DNA of 64,000 nucleotides from Pseudomonadales bacterium (GCA_022822135.1 JAJECH010000062.1:18498-82497), one strand, 5' to 3'; shown: positions 4,231 through 62,024, counted from the stretch's first letter. Translations and numbers: made by a program. Notes: a model not told the origin generated them from the sequence alone.

Positions 4231-6154
4231 GCTCGCGGACAAACCTGACCTGAACTCGCATTGGTTCATCAGCAAAACTCGGTCAAGGATTGAGTTAACC
4301 GAAACCAATCGCGAATTAATCGAACATATAGAGTGTGCTCTATCTACAGCTGATCTTCAAGAACAGGCTAACCTACTCGTTGACCAGCTACTGCACTTGC
4401 CGGTGGATTCGCCAACGCTTATCGCTGGTTTAGCGTTCTTTGCAGCGACCGATGGTGACTTAGATCCGAACACGCTCGGCACTGGTGATGCCGGCAATCT
4501 GCTTTCGACTTTGGTACGACTCTCAAGTGCTGACTCGGCTGCTACGACCAGTGCGCTACTCCAGGTTCGCCGTAATCGACGACAATCCGACAACGTGCGC
4601 CGCATGCTGGTGGCAATGATCGACGATCCACGCGTGGTCGTGTTGAAGATGGCAGAACGGTTGGTCCGATTACATCCAAGGCGCTTCGATGGATCTGAGG
4701 AAAGCAGACGTGCCGCCAGCGAGGTCCTTCACTTTTACGCGCCGCTCGCCAGTCGGCTCGGTATTTGGCAGCTAAAGTGGGTTCTCGAGGATTTCGCGTT
4801 TCGTTGCCTTCAACCAGATGATTACTTAGACATCGCGTCGCGGTTCAAAGAACGGCGATCACAGCGGGAAGAGCTGGTATCGAAGATTCAATCCGATCTA
4901 CGCTGGCGATTGAATGAACTTGGCATCACTGCAGAAATCCTGGGTCGCGCCAAGAACATCTACGGTATCTATCGCAAGATGCGTGAGAAAGACATCGCCT
5001 TTAACGATGTTCACGACGTGCTTGCCATACGAGTGATTGTTGATTCCGTGCCTGAGTGTTATCAGGTCCTGGGCGTGGTGCACATGTCATGGCCATACAT
5101 AGGTGCGGAATTCGACGATTACATCGCCAATCCCAAGTCAAACGGCTATCGGTCGCTGCACACTGCAGTCTATGGACCGCAGGGAAGGGTCTTAGAAGTT
5201 CAGATACGCACGCGCGAGATGCATGTCGATTCCGAGTTGGGTGTTTGCTCGCATTGGAGTTACAAGGGCGAAAACGACGCGAGTCTGGAAGATGAATCGA
5301 TCGACTGGATGCGTGAAGTACTAAATTGGCATGAAGCGCTTGATCCGGTAGAAGACACTGACGCGACAAGTCGCGAAAACAGCGACGCCGAAAAGAAGAC
5401 CTACGTTTCAACACCTCAACGACACATCGTTGATTTAGAAGCAGGATCGACAGCTCTCGACTTCGCGTTCAAAGTACATACGGACATCGGGCTACATTGC
5501 GTGGGGGCTCTGGTCGACGGCGAAGAAGCTGCTTTAAACACCGAATTGAAGACGGGACAGACCGTTGAGATATTGACGCAACCGCGTGCGACGCCGCAGC
5601 GCCGGTGGCTCGACCCAGACCTGATGTACTTCAAGACCTCGAAGACGCGTGAATTACTGCGGGGCTACTTTCAAGACTTCGATCGCACACACAATGCGAA
5701 AGCTGGTCGAGATTGGGTGCAGCAAGAGATCGATCGCTTAAACCTGAAACTAACTCCAGAAGAAGCGGCGCGGGCACTAGATTTCGGTTCGCCTGATGAA
5801 CTGTTTATCGAGGTAGCCTTGGGTTCGATGAAAGCACGACAGATGCTGGTGGAGATCGCTCAACTTCAGTTCGAAGTGAGTGAAGTGCTGCAGACCGACG
5901 AAGACTCAAAAGTCACGATGCAAATCCACTTGTCAGCACTGGATCGCAAGAATCTGATACGTGATATCACACGCGAAATTGCGGAGTTGAATGTGAACAT
6001 CGTCAATCTCAAACTTGGCGCGCCGGCACTAGATAAAGAAGCGACCGCAGATATTTGGGTGCAAGTTAGCGGATTGGGCGAAGCATCCTTGGTCATCGTG
6101 AGCTTGCGACGTCTACACCGTGTCACTGATGTTCGGTTAGTGGGCTCCGGTTAA
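4223..6154 (+). CDS. relA: GTP pyrophosphokinase RelA-like RSH protein with a degenerate hydrolase domain, a synthetase domain, TGS and a C-terminal ACT/RRM domain; no ZFD/CC segment
   Basis: DNVRRMLVAMIDDPRVVVLKMAERL and the synthetase core YGIYRKMREKDIAFNDVHDVLAIRVIV...GYRSLHTAV are present. A TGS domain (TGQTVEILT) is present. I prefer the ATG at 4223 (GGAG 9 nt upstream) over the GTG at 4196. Confidence 0.85.
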   Translation: MTELADKPDLNSHWFISKTRSRIELTETNRELIEHIECALSTADLQEQANLLVDQLLHLPVDSPTLIAGLAFFAATDGDLDPNTLGTGDAGNLLSTLVRLSSADSAATTSALLQVRRNRRQSDNVRRMLVAMIDDPRVVVLKMAERLVRLHPRRFDGSEESRRAASEVLHFYAPLASRLGIWQLKWVLEDFAFRCLQPDDYLDIASRFKERRSQREELVSKIQSDLRWRLNELGITAEILGRAKNIYGIYRKMREKDIAFNDVHDVLAIRVIVDSVPECYQVLGVVHMSWPYIGAEFDDYIANPKSNGYRSLHTAVYGPQGRVLEVQIRTREMHVDSELGVCSHWSYKGENDASLEDESIDWMREVLNWHEALDPVEDTDATSRENSDAEKKTYVSTPQRHIVDLEAGSTALDFAFKVHTDIGLHCVGALVDGEEAALNTELKTGQTVEILTQPRATPQRRWLDPDLMYFKTSKTRELLRGYFQDFDRTHNAKAGRDWVQQEIDRLNLKLTPEEAARALDFGSPDELFIEVALGSMKARQMLVEIAQLQFEVSEVLQTDEDSKVTMQIHLSALDRKNLIRDITREIAELNVNIVNLKLGAPALDKEATADIWVQVSGLGEASLVIVSLRRLHRVTDVRLVGSG

Positions 6155-6189
6155 AAAGTCATCGGCTAGGGACTCCCGGTCGAGTTAGT

Positions 6190-7092
6190 ATGGCAAATGT
6201 TCAGCTGATACAGGTAGGTGAGCGCGCTGGTCAGCGACTGGACAACTTTCTACTTAGTTATTTAAAAGGAGTTCCGCGAAGCCGCGTATATCGAATGATT
6301 CGCTCCGGCGAAGTTCGTGTAAATGGGTCCAGACGACGCCCAAATTCCCGACTCGAATACGACGACCAAGTGCGAATTCCACCGGTTCGGATCGAGGAAC
6401 GTAGCGAGTCGGCAGCACCTCCGCGTTCGTGGCTGAACGATGTAAGGAACTCAGTCATATATGAAAACGAGAACCTTTTGGTGCTCAACAAACCGGTAGG
6501 GACCGCGGTACATGGTGGTACTGGCGAGTCATTCGGCATCGCCGAAACGCTTGAGCAGGCATTTGGGACCGCGGACATGCAATTGGCTCACCGATTAGAC
6601 AAGGCGACATCGGGGTGCTTAGTGATCGCGAAGAATCGTTCGACGCTAAATCGATATCACGACGCGTTTCGTAACAACGATATTAAGAAGACATACGACG
6701 TATTAGTCGAAGGTGGGTGGCCGAAAGAACTCGATTCAGTCGATGCTCGGCTTGAACGGTTCCACCTCGCGAATGGTGAGCGAAGGGTCCGAGTTAGCGA
6801 AGCTGGGCAGCGTTCACGAACGGCCTTTGACGTTGTCGCGCGATGTAACAGAGCTACTTGGCTCTTGGCTCGACCCGTCACGGGACGCACTCATCAGATT
6901 CGTGTACACGCGACCTTCGCGGGTTATCCGATCCTTGGTGATCGTAAGTACGGTAATCGCAAATTTCAACCACGCGCATCGCGAATGATGCTCCACGCGA
7001 GAGCGCTCGAATTGCCGGATATCGGCGAAGTAAACGCGCCCGTGCCTTCAGCGATCGTCAGCTACTGGGAGCGTCTGGCGCAAGCGGATTAA
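6190..7092 (+). CDS. rluC: 23S rRNA pseudouridine synthase, RluA family (RluC-like)
   Basis: An N-terminal S4 domain (RLDNFLLSYL...SRVYRMIRSGEVRVNG) and the catalytic HRLDKATSGCLVIAKN motif are present. It is adjacent to a convergent maf, as in E. coli rluC-yceF. Confidence 0.85.
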   Translation: MANVQLIQVGERAGQRLDNFLLSYLKGVPRSRVYRMIRSGEVRVNGSRRRPNSRLEYDDQVRIPPVRIEERSESAAPPRSWLNDVRNSVIYENENLLVLNKPVGTAVHGGTGESFGIAETLEQAFGTADMQLAHRLDKATSGCLVIAKNRSTLNRYHDAFRNNDIKKTYDVLVEGGWPKELDSVDARLERFHLANGERRVRVSEAGQRSRTAFDVVARCNRATWLLARPVTGRTHQIRVHATFAGYPILGDRKYGNRKFQPRASRMMLHARALELPDIGEVNAPVPSAIVSYWERLAQAD

Positions 7093-7782: not shown

Positions 7783-8286
7783 GTGAAGGTATCACCTCGC
7801 GACTTTGCTCGAAAAAATCGTCGCTGGCGTGGCGAGGTACCGACGACGTCGTTTGATCGGCTCATGAACGAAATAACGACGGACAGCAAGTCTGTCGAGG
7901 TCGATCTCGCTTTTACGCATGACGAAAATAACCTGATAAGGATGCAAGGTCACGCCTCGGTGATCGCAGGGGTAGCGTGTCATCGTTGCGCAGAATCGGT
8001 CGAGACGACGATTCACGCGGATATCGACGCCCGAATCGTAGAGTCTGATGAAACTGCTAGGCAATTGGCGCAAGACTCAGATGTGATCGTGATCGAGGAC
8101 AATCCAGTTGCGGTAAGTGAGCTGATTGAGGACGATCTGATACTGAGTATTCCTTGGCGAGTTTGCGAAAACGAAAAGAATTGCCGTAACCTGAAAAACG
8201 ACGCTGCTGCAGAAACGCAAGACGAAAAACCAAGTGAATCTTCTCAGAAACCCTTTGCTAATCTGCGCGAACTTTTAAATCGATAG
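7783..8286 (+). CDS. yceD: YceD/DUF177 family protein (large ribosomal subunit accumulation protein)
   Basis: It lies immediately upstream of rpmF. It has the CxRC motif (CHRCAESV) and an acidic C-terminus, as is typical of YceD. Confidence 0.85.
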   Translation: MKVSPRDFARKNRRWRGEVPTTSFDRLMNEITTDSKSVEVDLAFTHDENNLIRMQGHASVIAGVACHRCAESVETTIHADIDARIVESDETARQLAQDSDVIVIEDNPVAVSELIEDDLILSIPWRVCENEKNCRNLKNDAAAETQDEKPSESSQKPFANLRELLNR

Positions 8287-8550: not shown

Positions 8551-9549
8551 ATGTCCCGCCCCTGCCGGATCGCGGTTGATTTATTAGGTGCAGAGCTCCC
8601 TGCAGCTGATTTGCTGAAAGGGGCGACTGACGCACTCGAGCACCATTCGAAATGCGAGTTGACGTTTATTTGTGACCGTCGCGAGCTTAAATCCAGGGTA
8701 TGCGATGCTCAACGAATTGTTCATTGCACAGACTGGGTGCACGAGCAGGATTCGTTACGGGAAGTATTAGCGGAACGAAAACGGAGCTCGATGCACATCG
8801 GGATGCACATGCTCCAGGATGGCGACATCGAGGGCTTCGTGAGTGTTGGCAGTACGGGCGCGCTCATGGCACTCGGGCGGCATCTCTTGCACACGCCCGA
8901 AGGTATTGATCGACCTGCGGTGATCAAGGAATTCGATGGTCGACAGCGACCGTTTTGGATGCTTGATCTCGGCGCTAATATCGTGCGGAAACCATCAACG
9001 TTGCACCAGTTTGCGAAATTGGGCGTCGCGTACGCGAACCAAGTAGGTAAGGTAAAACAGCCACGAGTTGCGTTGTTGAATATTGGTATCGAAGAGCGAA
9101 AAGGTCCGGCCCTTTTAAGAGACGCGGCTCAAATGCTGGAGCAGACCCGCGATGTGGACTTCGTTGGATTTGTTGAACCGAGTCGAATATTCGATGGGAC
9201 TGCGGATGTTGTCGTTACTGACGGATATGCTGGCAATATCGCGCTGAAATCGGTAGAAGGTACGGTCAACTTCATTCGAGATGTGTTTCTCAATGAACTA
9301 GCGGAAGATGCCAGCGACGATGCCGCAAAGCTCATACGTAAACCCGCGCGAAAGCGTTTTCGCCGTCTAATGAAGAAGCTTGACTCGCAACGACATAACG
9401 GCGCGAGTTTCGTTGGTTTAAATGGCGTTGTTGTGAAGAGCCACAACAGTACATCGAAAGCTGGCATGACCGCGGCGATCGACCAAGCAGTGCGAGAAGT
9501 CGAGTTGCAGGTGCCAGACAAGATCAGAGAATTTTTTTCAAAGGAGTAA
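8551..9549 (+). CDS. plsX: Phosphate acyltransferase PlsX
   Basis: The size is 332 aa. The motifs GFVSVGSTGALMA and DGYAGNIALKSVEG are present. The rpmF-plsX synteny is conserved. Confidence 0.95.
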   Translation: MSRPCRIAVDLLGAELPAADLLKGATDALEHHSKCELTFICDRRELKSRVCDAQRIVHCTDWVHEQDSLREVLAERKRSSMHIGMHMLQDGDIEGFVSVGSTGALMALGRHLLHTPEGIDRPAVIKEFDGRQRPFWMLDLGANIVRKPSTLHQFAKLGVAYANQVGKVKQPRVALLNIGIEERKGPALLRDAAQMLEQTRDVDFVGFVEPSRIFDGTADVVVTDGYAGNIALKSVEGTVNFIRDVFLNELAEDASDDAAKLIRKPARKRFRRLMKKLDSQRHNGASFVGLNGVVVKSHNSTSKAGMTAAIDQAVREVELQVPDKIREFFSKE

Positions 9550-31017: not shown

Positions 31018-33193
31018 AACGCGTCCTTAGGCGATTCCGCACGATTTCTGCAACGGTGTTGAACATGAATGTGATGAAGAACAGCACGAGCGCCATTAAG
31101 AAGAGGATTCGGAAGTGCGTCGAATTAGCTTCAGATTCCGGCATTTCCACCGCGATGTTAGCGGCGAATGTTCGCATGCCTTGAAATAGATTTAAGTCCA
31201 TGATGGGAGTATTACCAGTCGCCATCAAGACGATCATGGTTTCGCCGACCGCGCGACCGAATCCGATCATGATTGCGGAGAAAATCCCAGGGCTTGCCGT
31301 GAGTAGTACGACTCTCACTAGCGTTTGCCAACGGGTAGCCCCGAGTGCAAGCGAACCATGCACTAGGTGTTGTGGTACACCGTAAATTGCGTCTTCTGCG
31401 ATAGAGAAAATCGTTGGGATAACTGCCAATCCCATCGCGATACCGATGATGAGCGCGTTTCGTTGGTCGTACTCCAGACCCAGCTTCTCATACATCCAGG
31501 TCTTTGCGTCACCACTAAAAAACAGATTTGCGAGTGGCTGATCGAATTCGAGCGTGATCCACGTGAAAAAGACAAGCACAGGAACGGCGATCGCCGCGAA
31601 CCAACCGTCACATGCGCTGAGTACCTTACTCGGCATTCGCGACCAAAGTGTTGCGAATAGCAGCATCCCAATCGGTAGAACGATCACGCACAACAAAACA
31701 GATGTGAGATGGTCCTCAACGATGGGCGCCAACCATAAACCTGCAAGGAATCCCAGGATGACAGTAGGTAATGCTGCCATGATCTCGATACCCGGCTTCA
31801 CCCAAGCACGCATGCCAGGCGACATGAAATTAGCCGTATAGACGGCACCAGCTACCGCGATTGGGATCGCGAAGATCATGGCGTAAAACGCCGCTTTAAG
31901 CGTGCCAAAGAGAAGAGGCGTTAGCGAGAATTTCGCTTCAAAATCCGTATCAGCAGAAGAACTCTGCCAACTAAACACGGGTTCCTCATATCCTTCGTAC
32001 CAAACCTTGCCCCAAAGCGAATTCCATGAAATCTCCGGATGCGCGTTTTGGATCGCATACGTCTGGATTTGATCGGCTTGATACGTAACGAGTCGATCAG
32101 CCCGTGGTGAAAACACGAGCAACTTCGGCATCGCGTCAAAGTCGATCGACGTGAGTACCCGATTCGAAGTCGTGTAAGCCAAATGGGCAGTGTTATTCGC
32201 ATCGACGGCTACAAATCCCTTACGACGCTGCTCGCTTGCCAACGTTAAGATCGGGGCGTCGAAATCCATGGATCGGATCGGTTTAAAAACCGTGCCGATT
32301 TCCGACGGCGATAGTGACCACTGTCGAACGACACCAGAGTCGTGCCCAACGAGAATCGAGTATCTACCAAGAAGTGGTTCGAACGCAGTCGGTGCTTTCC
32401 CATCTTCCGCAAATGACGAGGACTGTACGACGCGAGGTCGCAGAACGGATGGCACGAGAATTAGTTGGAAATCCCCTGTTTGCTCGTTGACGTTGAATAG
32501 AAAGCGACCACGCGGTCCGAAGAGTGTGCGATATCTGCCGGGCGGCGCCTCGATCGTATTCTCGATTGGGAATTCCAGTTCAAAGTCGTCGTCCACTTCC
32601 TCAAATTCGGCGAGCAACAAGGAACCGTCTTGGCGACGCGCGACGATGCGAAGATCTTCATCGCTACGGTACACATCGAAGTCCGCCGTATCTTGTGGTA
32701 GTTGATACGTCGTATTAACAAACACTGGCTCTACCCGCTGTTCTAGAGTGCGAGTGTTGTCGATGTATCGGACCTGATGGGAGATGCGAAAGAATCGAAC
32801 TTCATTCGAGGTGTCACGGACCGCATAGGTATCCGTGGTCGGAAAGACAAGGATCGCGTCACGCCAAGGCATGGCGCTCATTTCAGCGACGTTCTCCAGC
32901 TCGAACGTCGACGGGTTTCGAAACTCAACATGACCGTTACCTCGGACCAACGTCACGATTTCAAAACTGTCGTCCGACCCAATCGCGAGCACATCTTCTG
33001 GCTGGTACGACACGTTATCTAAAACGTCGATCGATGTGGGTGCGAAAATCGGCAAGATGACCCAGAAGAGATACCCCATGATTAGCACGATAGCGGCAAT
33101 GACAGCGACGCCACCTGCGCCAATCACTTTCGCGGTAATCGTGTTAGTTAGTCTTCGCCGGTTCGAGATTTTCGGCAGGTTGTAGGCGGTCAT
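31004..33193 (-). CDS. pstC: Phosphate ABC transporter permease PstC (long form, 729 aa)
   Basis: The C-terminal permease core is present ([20 protein letters not shown]). A ~400-aa periplasmic N-terminal domain follows one TM helix. Confidence 0.9.
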   Translation of the reverse strand: MTAYNLPKISNRRRLTNTITAKVIGAGGVAVIAAIVLIMGYLFWVILPIFAPTSIDVLDNVSYQPEDVLAIGSDDSFEIVTLVRGNGHVEFRNPSTFELENVAEMSAMPWRDAILVFPTTDTYAVRDTSNEVRFFRISHQVRYIDNTRTLEQRVEPVFVNTTYQLPQDTADFDVYRSDEDLRIVARRQDGSLLLAEFEEVDDDFELEFPIENTIEAPPGRYRTLFGPRGRFLFNVNEQTGDFQLILVPSVLRPRVVQSSSFAEDGKAPTAFEPLLGRYSILVGHDSGVVRQWSLSPSEIGTVFKPIRSMDFDAPILTLASEQRRKGFVAVDANNTAHLAYTTSNRVLTSIDFDAMPKLLVFSPRADRLVTYQADQIQTYAIQNAHPEISWNSLWGKVWYEGYEEPVFSWQSSSADTDFEAKFSLTPLLFGTLKAAFYAMIFAIPIAVAGAVYTANFMSPGMRAWVKPGIEIMAALPTVILGFLAGLWLAPIVEDHLTSVLLCVIVLPIGMLLFATLWSRMPSKVLSACDGWFAAIAVPVLVFFTWITLEFDQPLANLFFSGDAKTWMYEKLGLEYDQRNALIIGIAMGLAVIPTIFSIAEDAIYGVPQHLVHGSLALGATRWQTLVRVVLLTASPGIFSAIMIGFGRAVGETMIVLMATGNTPIMDLNLFQGMRTFAANIAVEMPESEANSTHFRILFLMALVLFFITFMFNTVAEIVRNRLRTRYGNL

Positions 33194-33199
33194 GGATCG

Positions 33200-34159
33200 T
33201 TAGTTCTCGAGCCGTTTCAGCTCCCGGTTTACCATGCGTGCCGAAAGAGGTACGTATCCGTCTTTTTCTACTACTTCCTGTCCGGTTTCCGACAAGACCA
33301 TACGTAAGAACTCAAACTCGAGCGGATTAAGCGGTGTGTCAGGTTTCTTGTTAACGTAGATATACAAGTAACGACGAAGTGGATAGCTGCCATCAAGTGC
33401 AGTTTCTGTCGTCACTATCACCGGAGGCATGGTGGCGTCTTCTGCGATCGGTACAGCACGTACTCCCGAAGTAACGTAACCTACACCTGAGTATCCGATC
33501 CCGTTCAACGACGCGGTCACTGACTGTACGACGGACGCAGAGCCCGGTTGTTCATTTACGGTGTTCTTGAAATCGCCGGAGCACAATCCGACTTGCTTGA
33601 AATACCCATAGGTCCCGGACACCGAGTTTCTACCGTATAGCTGAAGTGGTCTATTCATCCAGGAACCATCCAACCCGAGATCTCCCCACGTACGCACGTT
33701 GGATGTTCCTCCGCATCGTCGAGTCGTCGAAAAAGCCGCATCGACTTGCTGGATTGTGAGTGCTTCAAGCGGGTTGTCCTTATGTACGTAAATCGCTAAT
33801 GCGTCAATGGCGACCCTTATACCTAAAGGCTTATAGCCGTAGTGCTTCTCAAACGCTTCGATTTCTTTGTCCTTCATCTTGCGACTCATAGGACCAAAAT
33901 TCGATACGCCTTCCGTTAAGGCAGGTGGCGCAGTGGACGAACCGGCAGCTTGCACTTGAATGTTGACGTTGGGGTATTCCTTTTCGAATGCTTCCGCCCA
34001 TAGCGTCATCAGATTGGCAAGCGTGTCTGATCCAACACTCGATAGATTTCCGGAAACACCACTAACTCGTTCGTACGTGGGAAGTTCGTCCGCAAAAACG
34101 AGGAATGCACTCGCCATGCACACGACAGCGAACTGGTATCGAAGTCGAAACGTATTCAT
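33200..34159 (-). CDS. pstS: Phosphate-binding protein PstS
   Basis: A signal peptide and periplasmic-binding-protein type motifs are present (GSDTL, AAGSS, GYSGVGY). The start overlaps the phoR stop (ATGA). Confidence 0.9.
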
Positions 34160-46286: not shown

Positions 46287-46382
46287 ATACGCGAACCAAA
46301 TGCCGACATTTCGTCAAGACCCCCTCGGCTTCCACTTCGGAAACGTACTGAGGGCTTAATCACGTTTGGCTGAACCTATAAT

Positions 46383-48388
<2,006 letters not shown>

Positions 48389-55382: not shown

Positions 55383-55456
55383 GGCTGGGTGGCAGAGTGG
55401 CCATGCTGCAGACTGCAACTCTGTTTACGCCGGTTCGATTCCGACCCCAGCCTCCA
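55383..55456 (+). tRNA. tRNA-Cys (GCA), 74 nt with encoded CCA
   Basis: I folded it by hand. The acceptor is GGCTGGG/CCCAGCC and the anticodon stem is GCAGA/TCTGT with loop CTGCAAC. The variable loop is 4 nt and the T-arm is GCCGG-TTCGATT-CCGAC with one C-A mismatch. It follows pgsA, as cysT does in E. coli. Confidence 0.88.
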
Positions 55457-59550: not shown

Positions 59551-59564
59551 TGGTGCCCGGCGCC
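59551..59564. repeat. Partial direct repeat of the tRNA-Leu 3' end (candidate distal att site of a decayed islet)
   Basis: TGGTGCCCGGCGCC here compares with TGGTGCCCGAGGCC at 60752..60765. The first 9 nt are identical and 12 of 14 match. It lies immediately after the hyuB stop. Confidence 0.35.
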
Positions 59565-60008
59565 TAAACTGACAATTTCTTTAACTATTTGACAAACATT
59601 TTTTTAGGTGTCCAATTTCAGAAGACAACAGTTTGTACAACAAATATCCAAGGAAAAAGTTGGCAGGCACCAAATTCGTTCTCCGGTTAATCGGTTTCTG
59701 TTCGACCGTGCCGTGTATGCTGATACTCACGGAGTGTACCGCACGGCACATCCGAAATCTCACAATAAGGCGGTCAGCTGCAGGACCGGGATCGCCCCGT
59801 GGCGGTTTGTACCGATGAAACCAGTTCGCGAACCGAAATGATCCCGGTCAGTTCGACTTCGCCGAGTTCTATCGCGAAGCAGTCCTCTATTTCAAAGACA
59901 ACCTCCAACAACGCGTTGCCTCTCCGACGAGCAAGCCCATCCCGCGCCGAGTAGTTACGCAGTGCGAATTCATTGCCGCGATGTGTCGCACTCCGATACA
60001 ATTTCGGC

Positions 60009-60290
60009 GTGAGAATCCGCCACAAGGCGTTACGGCGATTCTGGACGACGGAAGGCAGAATCAGAACCGGGCTGGATGCCGCCATGCTGCCCCGAATCAG
60101 GCTTGTCCTCACCGTACTGTCGCAGTCGCCTGGACCGGAGGGCATGCGCGGCAATCCGGGATGGAGACTGCATCAGTTGAAGGGCGATCTGGCTGGATTC
60201 TGGAGCGTACGCATTACCAGTAACTGGCGGATCGTGTTTCGCTTCGAGAATGGCGAGGCTATAGATGTCGACCTCGTCGATTATCATTGA
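60009..60290 (+). CDS. higB: HigB-type (RelE superfamily) toxin, plasmid-maintenance killer family
   Basis: IRHKALRRFW...LHQLKGDLAGFWSVRITSNWRIVFRFENGEAIDVDLVDYH is present. The likely start is the GTG at 60009. The toxin-first gene order fits HigBA. Confidence 0.85.
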   Translation: MRIRHKALRRFWTTEGRIRTGLDAAMLPRIRLVLTVLSQSPGPEGMRGNPGWRLHQLKGDLAGFWSVRITSNWRIVFRFENGEAIDVDLVDYH

Positions 60291-60300
60291 GGCAACGACC

Positions 60301-60570
60301 ATGAGCAATCCAAACTTGCAACTTCCGGCGCATCCCGGCGAGGTCTTGCGCGAATGGATCAAGGGCAACGACAAGACCATCGCTGAAACCGCGGCGCTGC
60401 TCGGTGCGTCCACGTCTCAACTTAATAGGGTGCTTGCAGGAAAGGTGCGACTGTCGGCTACCCTTGCGGTGCGGCTGGAAAACCTGGGCTGGAGCACCGC
60501 AGAGGTATGGTCCCGTATGCAGGCCGCCTGGGAGGTCTCCGAAGCGCGCCGGGCCGAGGACGCAGCCTGA
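60301..60570 (+). CDS. higA: HigA-type antitoxin (XRE-family HTH)
   Basis: PAHPGEVLREWI...IAETAALLGASTSQLNRVLAGK is present. It starts at the ATG at 60301, 11 nt after the higB stop. Confidence 0.85.
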   Translation: MSNPNLQLPAHPGEVLREWIKGNDKTIAETAALLGASTSQLNRVLAGKVRLSATLAVRLENLGWSTAEVWSRMQAAWEVSEARRAEDAA

Positions 60571-60751: not shown

Positions 60752-61050
60752 TGGTGCCCGAGGCCGGAGTCGAACCGGCACGGATTAACTCCGAGGGATT
60801 TTCATACCACTACGGCTTTCGCCGCCGACAAATTTCGTTTGTGGTCTGGACTTTCTCTTCACCATAGCTACAAACCGTAGGTGGAGGCCGTCAAGTCTCT
60901 ACACTTCTCGCTCGGGTGAGCGATTTAGCTCGGGATTGCCAGTCAAGCGACGCAGGTTTCCCCGAATTTGACCTCATTCACGACGACGGTTTCCCGTCGA
61001 GTGCTCAAGCTTATTAAGTCCCTTGCGTCTACCAATTTCGCCACTCGGGC
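60752..61050 (-). tRNA. tRNA-Leu (UAA) gene interrupted by a group I intron; the exons join to an 86-nt tRNA with CCA
   Basis: The 5' exon (61050..61016) is GCCCGAGTGGCGAAATTGGTAGACGCAAGGGACTT. The 3' exon (60802..60752) is AAAATCCCTCGGAGTTAATCCGTGCCGGTTCGACTCCGGCCTCGGGCACCA. The acceptor GCCCGAG/CTCGGGC, the anticodon stem AGGGA/TCCCT, the joined loop CTTAAAA, a long variable arm and a TTCGACT T-loop are all present. Confidence 0.85.
60803..61015 (-). ncRNA. Group I intron (IC3-like, 213 nt, no ORF) in the tRNA-Leu anticodon loop
   Basis: It is inserted after U34. P1 has a U-G pair at the splice site (CUU|AA with UUGAG). P2 is CGACGG-GAAA-CCGTCG. The core strings TCAAATTCGGGGAAACC, GGCAATCCCGAGCTAA and GTGTAGAGACTTGACGGCC..CCACCTACGG are present. 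The last nucleotide is G. Confidence 0.8.
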
Positions 61051-61115
61051 ACGCAGCGTAATTATCGCAAAGCGCAAGGCTGATAAACGTAATGGCTATG
61101 TCGGCGTGGCTAGGC

Positions 61116-62024
61116 TCATGTCGCAGTAGTAGTATCTTCGATAACTCGCCGGCGATTTACGACGTATAAACCGAGAAAAATCATGGCGATCCCGATGAAC
61201 GCGGTGAAGTGGATCGATTCACCAAGTATCGTGATGATCAAGACGAGCGAGATGATCGGTGATAGAAAGATCAGCTGGCTTAACCTCGCAACACTTGATG
61301 TTCTCGACATAGCTCGCTGCCAAAGTAGGAAAGCGAATCCCATTTCGAGGAGTCCAATCCACGCGCCATAACCGAAGTTTGACGGAGTCAGCGGTGGAAA
61401 TCCTTCTGTAAAGTAACAGAGAACGGTCAATATCGGAACAGCGACACTAAACCCATACCACATGAACCACCATGGTTCGAGTCGTATCGCCACGCTCCAG
61501 ATCCAATAGATTGCCCAGACCAAGGTACTGGCTATCGCAAGCGCAACGCCCAATCCGTCGAACCCGAGCGTCCCGGTTAACTGCCCTTTCGTAACGAGTA
61601 GGAGTACCCCCATGTATCCAATACATATGCCGACGAATGTGCTTCGGTGTAGTTTTTGGCGCAACATGGGTATCGCGAGTAGCGCAGTCACGATTGCCCA
61701 TGTGTAGTTCAACGGTTGCGCAACGTGCGCTGGCAGCAAGTCGTATGCGGTAAGCAACACAATGTAGTAAAGCAGCGGGTTTAGAAGCCCGAGCAGGCAC
61801 GCTTTGAATACATGAGTTATCTCGCGCGGTTGCGAGGGTAAAACTGCACAACAAATAGAAAACAAGACCCAAGAGAAGCAACTGCCGATCCATAGCAGTT
61901 GAATAGGCTCCATGTTGCGCAACCCGAGCTTGAATCCCACTGCAACGGTCGACCACATCATCACAGCGGTAAGTCCCATCAGCATGGGTCTACTCAAGAC
62001 CGGTGGCATAGGTGTCGTGGGCAA
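61116..62024 (-). CDS. DMT-superfamily (EamA-like) transporter
   Basis: It has about ten predicted TM helices in two EamA-like halves. Confidence 0.8.
   Translation of the reverse strand: MPTTPMPPVLSRPMLMGLTAVMMWSTVAVGFKLGLRNMEPIQLLWIGSCFSWVLFSICCAVLPSQPREITHVFKACLLGLLNPLLYYIVLLTAYDLLPAHVAQPLNYTWAIVTALLAIPMLRQKLHRSTFVGICIGYMGVLLLVTKGQLTGTLGFDGLGVALAIASTLVWAIYWIWSVAIRLEPWWFMWYGFSVAVPILTVLCYFTEGFPPLTPSNFGYGAWIGLLEMGFAFLLWQRAMSRTSSVARLSQLIFLSPIISLVLIITILGESIHFTAFIGIAMIFLGLYVVNRRRVIEDTTTAT

Follow-up and report, generated by a model that had tools for sequence, protein, structure and literature searches.

A tRNA-Leu(UAA) gene split by a small group I intron in an uncultured marine gammaproteobacterial clade

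A 64,000-nucleotide stretch of DNA from an assembly labelled Pseudomonadales bacterium (GCA_022822135.1, JAJECH010000062.1:18498-82497), referred to below as the window, encodes on its minus strand a tRNA-Leu(UAA) in two pieces, separated by an insert with the features of a group I intron. Exon 1 spans 35 nt and ends in GGGACTT (full sequence GCCCGAGTGGCGAAATTGGTAGACGCAAGGGACTT), the insert of 213 nt opens with AATAAGCTTGAG and closes with GTGGTATG, and exon 2, whose 51 nt include an encoded CCA, starts with AAAATCCCT (full sequence AAAATCCCTCGGAGTTAATCCGTGCCGGTTCGACTCCGGCCTCGGGCACCA). Coordinates of these and other features are collected in Table 1. A first-pass annotation, generated by a model from the sequence alone, had proposed this arrangement, and its strand, exon lengths and gap proved exact to the base.

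Standard callers pass over the gene, as that annotation had anticipated. In its default mode ARAGORN places no tRNA at the locus and reports a tRNA-Cys as the only tRNA of the whole 64-kb window, and the Rfam tRNA model likewise has no match at the split gene. When ARAGORN is run in intron mode, a check that had been suggested, it calls a tRNA-Leu(taa) with a 213-nt intron at 35/36 (ARAGORN's own numbering), bounded as GACTT-intron-AAAAT. The joined exons are called as an 86-nt class II tRNA-Leu(taa) with a long variable arm, an A73 discriminator and a 3′ CCA; the 5-bp anticodon stem AGGGA/TCCCT and the loop CU-UAA-AA are those first read from the sequence. Thus the flanks, whose failure to form a cloverleaf had been named as a ground for refutation, are drawn by ARAGORN as a canonical tRNA. 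Insertion after U34, also part of the original proposal, is placed there by the ARAGORN boundary and by 15/15 homologues. The spliced tRNA finds its best E. coli match in the tRNA-Leu of the tRNA-Gly/tRNA-Cys/tRNA-Leu cluster, which is the leuZ position, with 78% identity over the full length; the claimed resemblance to leuZ is therefore right as to the gene, and fair but not strong as to its closeness.

The Rfam covariance model for group I introns (RF00028, Intron_gpI), which had likewise been named as a check, matches 61025..60826 on the minus strand with 55.2 bits (E = 2.8e-11, model positions 1-253), against a gathering score of 50 bits. The model has a single P9 hairpin, whereas the insert has a three-way P9 junction. 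Rfam holds one group I family only, and the insert was placed in subgroup IC3 from its architecture: a length of 213 nt, the presence of P2, a simple P5 hairpin without P5abc, and an insertion site in the anticodon loop at 34/35. P5(a-d) is absent from IC3 introns (PMC11835236). No homing endonuclease or other intron-encoded open reading frame (ORF) was found, the ORFs over the 213-nt intron being spurious opposite-strand frames only.

Within the insert, the helices P1 to P9 of a group I ribozyme can be assigned. At the 5′ splice site U35 forms a wobble pair with G45, and this pair, together with C33-G47 and U34-A46 (all in precursor numbering), is invariant in 15/15 sequences. The P1 helix of the first-pass annotation, in which exon CUU and intron AA pair with UUGAG, is borne out by this invariant U·G; its P2 is present with an invariant GAAA in L2, and its terminal G is found at 60803 and in 15/15 homologues. 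The joining segments that flank P4 (J3/4, J4/5 and J5/4) are A-rich, and an AG linker lies between the 3′ strand of P7 and P9. The G-C pair beside the bulged A of P7 is expected to be the guanosine-binding site. By our reading of the alignment, the internal loop of P8 is an 11-nt motif resembling a GAAA-tetraloop receptor, and two relatives (L008 and L009) have the canonical form CCUAAG...UAUGG. The minimum free energy fold of the single sequence gives the same architecture minus the pseudoknot.

Table 1. Features of the split tRNA-Leu(UAA) gene and its intron, in window coordinates
Feature	Coordinates	Strand	Evidence
tRNA-Leu(UAA) exon 1: acceptor 5′ strand, D arm, anticodon stem 5′ strand, C32 U33 U34	61016..61050	-	ARAGORN intron mode and spliced construct; nearly invariant in clade
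Group I intron, 213 nt, no ORF, between U34 and A35	60803..61015	-	RF00028, covariation, ARAGORN boundaries
tRNA-Leu(UAA) exon 2: A35 A36, anticodon stem 3′ strand, long variable arm, T arm, acceptor 3′ strand, A73, CCA	60752..60802	-	ARAGORN; anticodon-stem covariation
P1: exon C33 U34 U35 and intron A36 A37 (61018..61014) with guide UUGAG (61008..61004), precursor numbering	61004..61018	-	C-G, U-A and U·G invariant in 15/15
P2 hairpin, 9-10 bp, invariant GAAA tetraloop L2 (60993..60990)	60979..61003	-	Two-sided change in 9/10 pairs (15 sequences), 5/10 within clade
P3 5′ strand GAGGUC, partner 60889..60884	60970..60975	-	4/6 pairs compensatory; 100% of cells pair
P4-P5 domain: P4 UCGGGG/UCCCGA, J4/5 AAA, P5 hairpin, J5/4 CAA	60930..60965	-	P4 3/6 compensatory, 100% of cells pair; two closing C-G pairs of P5 conserved
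P6 and P6a hairpin	60903..60929	-	4/7 pairs compensatory
P7 5′ strand G-A(bulge)-GACU	60894..60899	-	Complementary to 60852..60848; 5/5 pairs invariant in 15/15
P3 3′ strand GGCCUC; forms P3/P7 pseudoknot	60884..60889	-	P3 covariation
P8 with internal loop CCUACG...UAUGG	60860..60883	-	Outer and inner helices covary; P8/P8a two-sided change in 3/6 pairs
J8/7 AAGAGAA (60859..60853) and P7 3′ strand AGUCC (60852..60848)	60848..60859	-	Aligned to RF00028 core; nearly invariant
P9 three-way junction: P9 ACCAC/GUGGU, P9a CGA/UCG, P9b CGGC-GAAA-GCCG (loop 60820..60817)	60806..60845	-	Two-sided change in P9a 3/3 and P9b 3/5; P9 conserved
Terminal guanosine (omega-G), 3′ splice site	60803	-	G in 15/15 homologues, directly before invariant AAAATC of exon 2
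Candidate extended -10 element TGC-GATAAT	61061..61069	-	10 nt upstream of mature tRNA 5′ end; phylogenetic footprint

One element of the original description did not survive in full. The last ~59 nt had been described as an extra 3′ extension of an Azoarcus-like core, folding as ACCAC/GTGGT around two small hairpins, one of them CGGC-GAAA-GCCG. The fold is as described, and the segment is not extra: its first ~22 nt are J8/7, the 3′ strand of P7 and the AG linker, and the remainder is the P9 domain. There is no catalytic core without J8/7 and the P7 3′ strand, and RF00028 aligns both of them to the core. The impression of an extension stems from recalling the Azoarcus intron only up to GCUAUGG; that intron runs on past GCUAUGG with UGAAGGCAUAGUCCAG... 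and is presumably colinear there with the intron described here.

In order to ask what is conserved, relatives of the locus were collected. An exact 30-mer scan of species-representative genomes returned one (L001), a metagenome-assembled genome (MAG) labelled Gammaproteobacteria bacterium COS1_bin_8, which has the same gene order and a pre-tRNA region that is 96% identical. Syntenic loci were retrieved through the neighbouring DMT/EamA transporter gene (61116..62024, minus strand), with proteins 59-100% identical to that of the window. All 10 complete syntenic loci (10/10) carry a tRNA-Leu(taa) with an intron of 212-221 nt at 35/36 (ARAGORN numbering), and the eleventh (L015), truncated by the end of the fetched sequence, holds the first ~140 nt of the precursor, made up of the 35-nt exon 1 and the beginning of the intron. 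The survey of intron-bearing and intron-less alleles that the first-pass annotation had called for thus finds the intron at the same site in all 10 complete loci and in the partial one. Identity to the intron of one clade member, L019, is 78%. Around the 51% identical DMT transporter of the nearest outgroup contig (L038), no tRNA lies within 10 kb in either direction, which makes this contig uninformative on an intron-less ancestral allele. Among more distant homologues, a metagenome scan that yielded 4 loci in all gave two tRNA-Leu(UAA) genes with introns of 214 and 217 nt (L002 and L003), and the set also includes one locus from a viral scan (L024) and two from a plasmid search (L039 and L040). 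The RF00028 score of L001 is 50.6 bits; the structurally intact tRNA-Leu introns of L002, L003, L039 and L040 score 38-46 bits, below the gathering score, so that much of this intron family is missed by annotation at the Rfam threshold.

From 13 of these homologues RNAalifold predicts de novo the cloverleaf together with P1, P2, P3, P4, P5, P6, P6a, P8, P8a, P9, P9a and P9b, with compensatory change in 38 of 79 pairs. With P7 added, 97.4% of 1,250 cells in a set of 15 sequences form a standard pair, compared to 85.8% in a shuffle and 30-43% when the partner is slid by 1-3 columns, and two-sided change occurs in 45 of 84 pairs (shuffle, 18.6 ± 2.7; slid partner, 12-17). Pairing in each of P3, P4, P6 and P8 is 90-100% in this set. 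All four tRNA arms covary as well; in distant homologues the two halves of the anticodon stem, one on each side of the intron, change in concert (AGGGA/UCCCU, GCAGA/UCUGC and ACGGA/UCCGU). Within the clade alone (10 sequences), 98.8% of cells pair and 9 pairs show two-sided change, against 5.0 ± 1.3 in shuffles. Both exons and the core (P3, P4, P6, P7 and J8/7) are invariant there, and what variation there is falls in loops or, as compensatory change, in P2, P8, P8a and P9b. Because the core is held fixed and the peripheral helices change in compensation, the intron appears to be maintained and not a relic; the pattern reads as that of a ribozyme under purifying selection, as opposed to a decaying insert.

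A chance or false-positive match was ruled out by RF00028, by ARAGORN in intron mode, by RNAalifold and by the covariation counts. The RF00028 match, intron-aware tRNA detection, covariation and taxonomic context together support the reading of the insert as a small IC3-type group I intron that splits tRNA-Leu(UAA) after U34 on a gammaproteobacterial chromosome. The first-pass assignment to group I, type IC3, is likewise upheld by the RF00028 match, the U·G pair, the terminal G, the presence of P1 to P9 and the compact architecture.

The window belongs to a metagenomic scaffold, ENA ERZ23491298 (KELL22-1 scaffold_214). The taxonomic context comes from the rest of the window, which is chromosomal in content (relA-like, fabF, pstCA, thiC with a thiamine pyrophosphate (TPP) riboswitch, and uvrC). 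The nearest named UvrC proteins belong to MAGs labelled 'Gammaproteobacteria bacterium' (61-85% identity), and those of MAGs labelled 'Pseudomonadales bacterium' are 59-61% identical. A gap in UvrC identity sets the clade apart, with its members at 70% or more and all others at 64% or less. The genomes of the clade measure ~3.0-3.6 Mb; marine samples are the source of several of them, one being a TARA assembly. The host belongs to an uncultured marine gammaproteobacterial clade.

The host makes regular use of the codon concerned: UUA accounts for 11.4 per 1,000 codons and occurs in 34 of the 35 long ORFs of the window. Reading UUA needs a tRNA with the anticodon UAA, so such a tRNA is required. 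ARAGORN finds no other tRNA-Leu in the 64-kb window, and we infer that the split gene is the sole tRNA-Leu(UAA) gene of the genome. Since both ARAGORN in default mode and the Rfam tRNA model miss the gene, genomes of this clade will look as if they could not read UUA. Upstream, the hexamer (A/G/T)ATAAT at a fixed distance from the tRNA +1 is the only conserved block in otherwise divergent spacers (11/11 clade loci), and in the window this ATAAT box is preceded by TG. We read the box, as a phylogenetic footprint, as a candidate extended -10 promoter. A scan for two-hexamer sigma-70 promoters and a scan for intrinsic terminators flagged nothing around the gene.

How the intron relates to known ones can be judged first from the cyanobacterial tRNA-Leu(UAA) intron, which in Anabaena PCC 7120 is 249 nt long (Kuhsel 1990, Xu 1990, cited in PMC3984707). 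Host gene, U34/A35 site, the P1 pairing of exon CUU and intron AA with UUGAG, and the lack of an ORF are shared. In contrast to the Anabaena intron, with its long P6 extension, the intron here has a short P6 hairpin and a receptor-like loop (CCUACG...UAUGG) in P8, its exons resemble E. coli leuZ, and its host is a gammaproteobacterium. Alignment to the Anabaena sequence, which we take as a lead only, is almost gap-free from P7′ to the terminal G, with the three-way P9 junction and a GAAA-capped P9b. The tRNA-Ile(CAU) intron of Azoarcus sp. BH72 is of type IC3 and has crystal structures (cited in PMC3984707). It shares with the present intron a similar small size, a GC-rich core and GAAA tetraloops on P2 and on the P9 domain, and differs in tRNA, in insertion site and in having a single P9 hairpin where P9, P9a and P9b are found here. 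Stretches of J3/4-P4, J6/7-P7-P3′ and P8 appear near-identical, again as a lead only. Overall identity, a lead and not a test, is ~65% to the Anabaena intron and ~67% to the 197-nt Azoarcus ribozyme. On this lead, the label 'Azoarcus-like' of the first-pass annotation fits the core and P8, while the site and the P9 junction match the cyanobacterial tRNA-Leu(UAA) intron, and the element looks like a Leu-type intron with an Azoarcus-like P8.

Precedents exist within the same bacterial class. Vepritskiy and colleagues are said to have described, in J Bacteriol in 2002, a tRNA-Leu(UAA) intron of ~231 nt from the Pseudomonas sp. subsurface isolate D0715, reportedly self-splicing in vitro. That intron, in the same gene, at the same site and in a gammaproteobacterial host, is reported to have the CCUACG...UAUGG motif also seen here; the present clade differs in being a separate, uncultured marine lineage. 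Among the Beggiatoaceae, Ca. Maribeggiatoa (BOGUAY) and Ca. Thiomargarita nelsonii have a tRNA-Leu-TAA that was missed by annotation pipelines and is interrupted by a putative group I intron (PMC4853749). These are again Gammaproteobacteria, and their introns, compared here by description, are longer, with a Thiomargarita locus of ~350 nt (PMC4853749). The claim that such an intron is unusual in this genomic context is consequently overstated, since it had been reported in two Beggiatoaceae (PMC4853749) and homologues also lie on plasmids and viral contigs. The intron is a known kind of element with precedent in its own class, to which a whole gammaproteobacterial lineage is now added.

Our overall reading, to which we assign a probability of roughly 90%, is that the locus is a functional tRNA-Leu(UAA) gene of an uncultured marine gammaproteobacterium, split between U34 and A35 by a 213-nt ORF-less IC3-like intron that is ancestral to the clade, vertically inherited and under purifying selection. 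Judged from its conserved structure, the intron is almost certainly splicing-competent. The expected course of splicing follows the group I paradigm (PMC3984707), and no new mechanism is revealed. The gene's own promoter would yield a precursor of ~300 nt, in which the intron would fold into a core of P3-P7 and P4-P6 stabilized by two GAAA tetraloops. By analogy with the Azoarcus structure and the known 11-nt receptor, the L2 GAAA probably docks on the P8 loop CCUA(C/A)G...UAUGG; by analogy with the same structure, a pair of conserved C-G pairs in P5 is the probable docking site of the L9b GAAA. An external guanosine, bound at the P7 G-C pair next to the bulged A, would attack the phosphate after U34 at the U·G pair. 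The intron half of P1 (A36 A37 with U44 U43) would then be swapped for a minimal P10 in which A249 and A250 pair with the same U's (precursor numbering), and the terminal G would move into the G site. Attack of the U34 3′-OH after this G would join it to A35, with the junction GGGACUU followed by AAAAUCCC, and the product would be the 86-nt tRNA-Leu(UAA) that is needed for UUA codons.

Several points weigh against this reading. The RF00028 score is only ~5 bits above threshold, and the alignment stops 23 nt short of the true 3′ splice site. P7, because all 5 of its pairs are invariant, is supported by conservation and complementarity in place of covariation, and the same holds for P9, which is nearly invariant. 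P10 can have at most 2 bp (A249 A250 with U44 U43), and the folding z-score of the single sequence is a modest -2.1. That splicing takes place, and that it needs no protein, is something we infer from the sequence, and the status of sole gene comes from a tRNA search whose scope was the 64-kb window.

As an alternative, it could be supposed that the intron no longer splices, that the copy is a pseudogene and that an intron-less tRNA-Leu(UAA) elsewhere does the work; the search for tRNA-Leu genes covered the 64-kb window, and expression is read from the DNA, which leaves room for such a relic. Yet exons and core are essentially invariant though the neighbouring protein has diverged to 59-63% identity, the peripheral helices change by compensatory substitution and stay paired, and the -10-like box is conserved inside otherwise divergent spacers. 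A pseudogene would not keep such features in 11 other lineages, and we regard a relic as highly improbable. Very unlikely too, by our estimate, is a genuine intron that depends in vivo on a host protein, such as an RNA chaperone or a synthetase-like cofactor, for folding or splicing. Some group I introns do need proteins (reviewed in PMC3984707). P1 and P10 are also short in the present case. However, the two GAAA tetraloops, the receptor-like motif of P8 and the compact GC-rich core are features of self-sufficiency in small tRNA introns, no candidate cofactor gene is linked to the locus, and the related tRNA introns of Anabaena and Azoarcus self-splice in vitro.

We give almost no credence to a recent arrival of the intron, or of the whole unit of tRNA and intron, by horizontal transfer, even though homologous units were met with in a Bradyrhizobium plasmid, in resistance plasmids of enterobacteria and in a viral contig, and adjoining the gene is a 1.2-kb insertion that repeats the tRNA 3′ end at 12/14 positions. 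In all fetched clade members the intron sits at one and the same place on the chromosome, in or near the interval that separates the DMT transporter from hydantoinase B; divergence of the intron follows that of the hosts, from 96% identity over the pre-tRNA region in L001 to 78% for the intron of L019; and there is no homing endonuclease gene. The shared locus, the tracking of host divergence and the lack of a homing endonuclease imply that acquisition predates the clade, as the vertically inherited gene proposed above would have it. Transfer at some older time is possible.

The insertion beside the gene can be described further. The sequence TGGTGCCCGGCGCC (59551-59564) repeats the tRNA 3′ end (60752-60765) in direct orientation at 12/14 positions. 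It lies 4 nt past the hydantoinase B stop codon, at precisely the point where L001 and the other relatives have the end of their tRNA. The 1.2 kb between repeat and tRNA are absent from those relatives and encode a HigB-like toxin (59973-60290; PF05015, E = 5.6e-14) and an overlapping 101-aa ORF (60265-60570) that by eye has the look of a helix-turn-helix antitoxin, with no Pfam match. No integrase is present. The segment has the appearance of a small insertion at the tRNA 3′ end by which the gene was restored. On the opposite strand, ~5 kb away and beyond the hydantoinase A/B pair, lies the tRNA-Cys(GCA) (55383-55456, plus strand), an arrangement of the two tRNA genes that is kept in L001 (L001:954-1027); the E. 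coli genes cysT and leuZ are neighbours within a single operon. The TPP riboswitch of the window (RF00059, 60.6 bits, 46381-46479, plus strand) is located directly upstream of thiC (46505-48388), which is an ordinary arrangement.

The homologous units on mobile DNA are the most interesting by-product of the analysis. E. coli plasmid NZ_CP058575.1 carries at 32996..33293 (L039:3995-4292) a tRNA-Leu(UAA) split at the same position by a group I intron of 212 nt, and the same element is present in L041 and L042 at 6001-6299. This unit is 68-69% identical to the window and has a P1 of three exon pairs only. Its RF00028 score of 39.8 bits falls short of the gathering score, its sequence is compatible with the same set of covarying helices, and its exons, once joined, are called as tRNA-Leu(taa). 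It lies ~95 bp from a tmrB-like 'AAA family ATPase' gene next to aac(3)-IId, and beyond it are two hypothetical genes, a DUF3883 gene and ISCfr1 or IS26. RefSeq annotates no feature over the unit, and the literature searched gave no link between tmrB and a group I intron. At 99% identity or more, the unit recurs in ~1,257-1,273 plasmids of PLSDB, from hosts such as E. coli, Klebsiella, Salmonella and Acinetobacter. It is also present in 625-636 of 5,426 complete E. coli genomes, where 82 of 671 places are chromosomal. A second plasmid, the 316-kb conjugative alphaproteobacterial plasmid NZ_CP094524.1 of Bradyrhizobium sp. ISRA443, carries next to its trb transfer genes (6509..6792; L040:2995-3284) a tRNA-Leu(UAA) whose intron, of the same family, measures 204 nt; identity to the window is 72% and the RF00028 score 45 bits.

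Viral contigs of IMG/VR with tRNA arrays (L024, L034, L021, L028 and L032) also have tRNA genes split by introns with the same core. For example, L024:723-999 is a tRNA with anticodon UAA and no long variable arm, split by a 201-nt intron (RF00028, 54.9 bits), and L034 has two RF00028 matches of 67 and 65 bits (7988-8175 and 8920-9193), one of them inside a tRNA(CAU). As of a 2014 review, the phage group I introns then known were all in protein-coding genes (PMC3984707). The metagenome scan added a tRNA with anticodon CAU and a 192-nt intron before C34, with the same core and P9 features (L005:928-1194, WBZT01000151.1), and a related intron core with no detectable tRNA around it, possibly in a protein gene (L004:~400-800).

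One tentative hypothesis, which we consider somewhat less probable than an even chance, is that the 'cyanobacterial' tRNA-Leu(UAA) intron is the tip of a larger and largely unannotated proteobacterial population of tRNA and intron units travelling on mobile DNA. The clade of the window would be one vertical branch of this population, with others on the Bradyrhizobium conjugative plasmid, on viral contigs and in the aac(3)-IId/tmrB module. Through that module, ~1 in 9 complete E. coli genomes has gained an additional tRNA-Leu(UAA) together with a group I intron that appears intact. Should the plasmid copy be expressed and undergo splicing, clinical strains of E. coli and Klebsiella would carry an active, unannotated bacterial group I ribozyme.

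The 11 clade sequences and 5 distant homologues amount to a natural variant set of a very small ribozyme, with an invariant core, covarying P2, P6a, P8 and P9b, and two probable tetraloop contacts, which is useful for ribozyme engineering and for folding studies beside Azoarcus. A lineage in which an intron at U34/A35 is fixed also bears on the old question of whether this intron is ancient or has moved between phyla.

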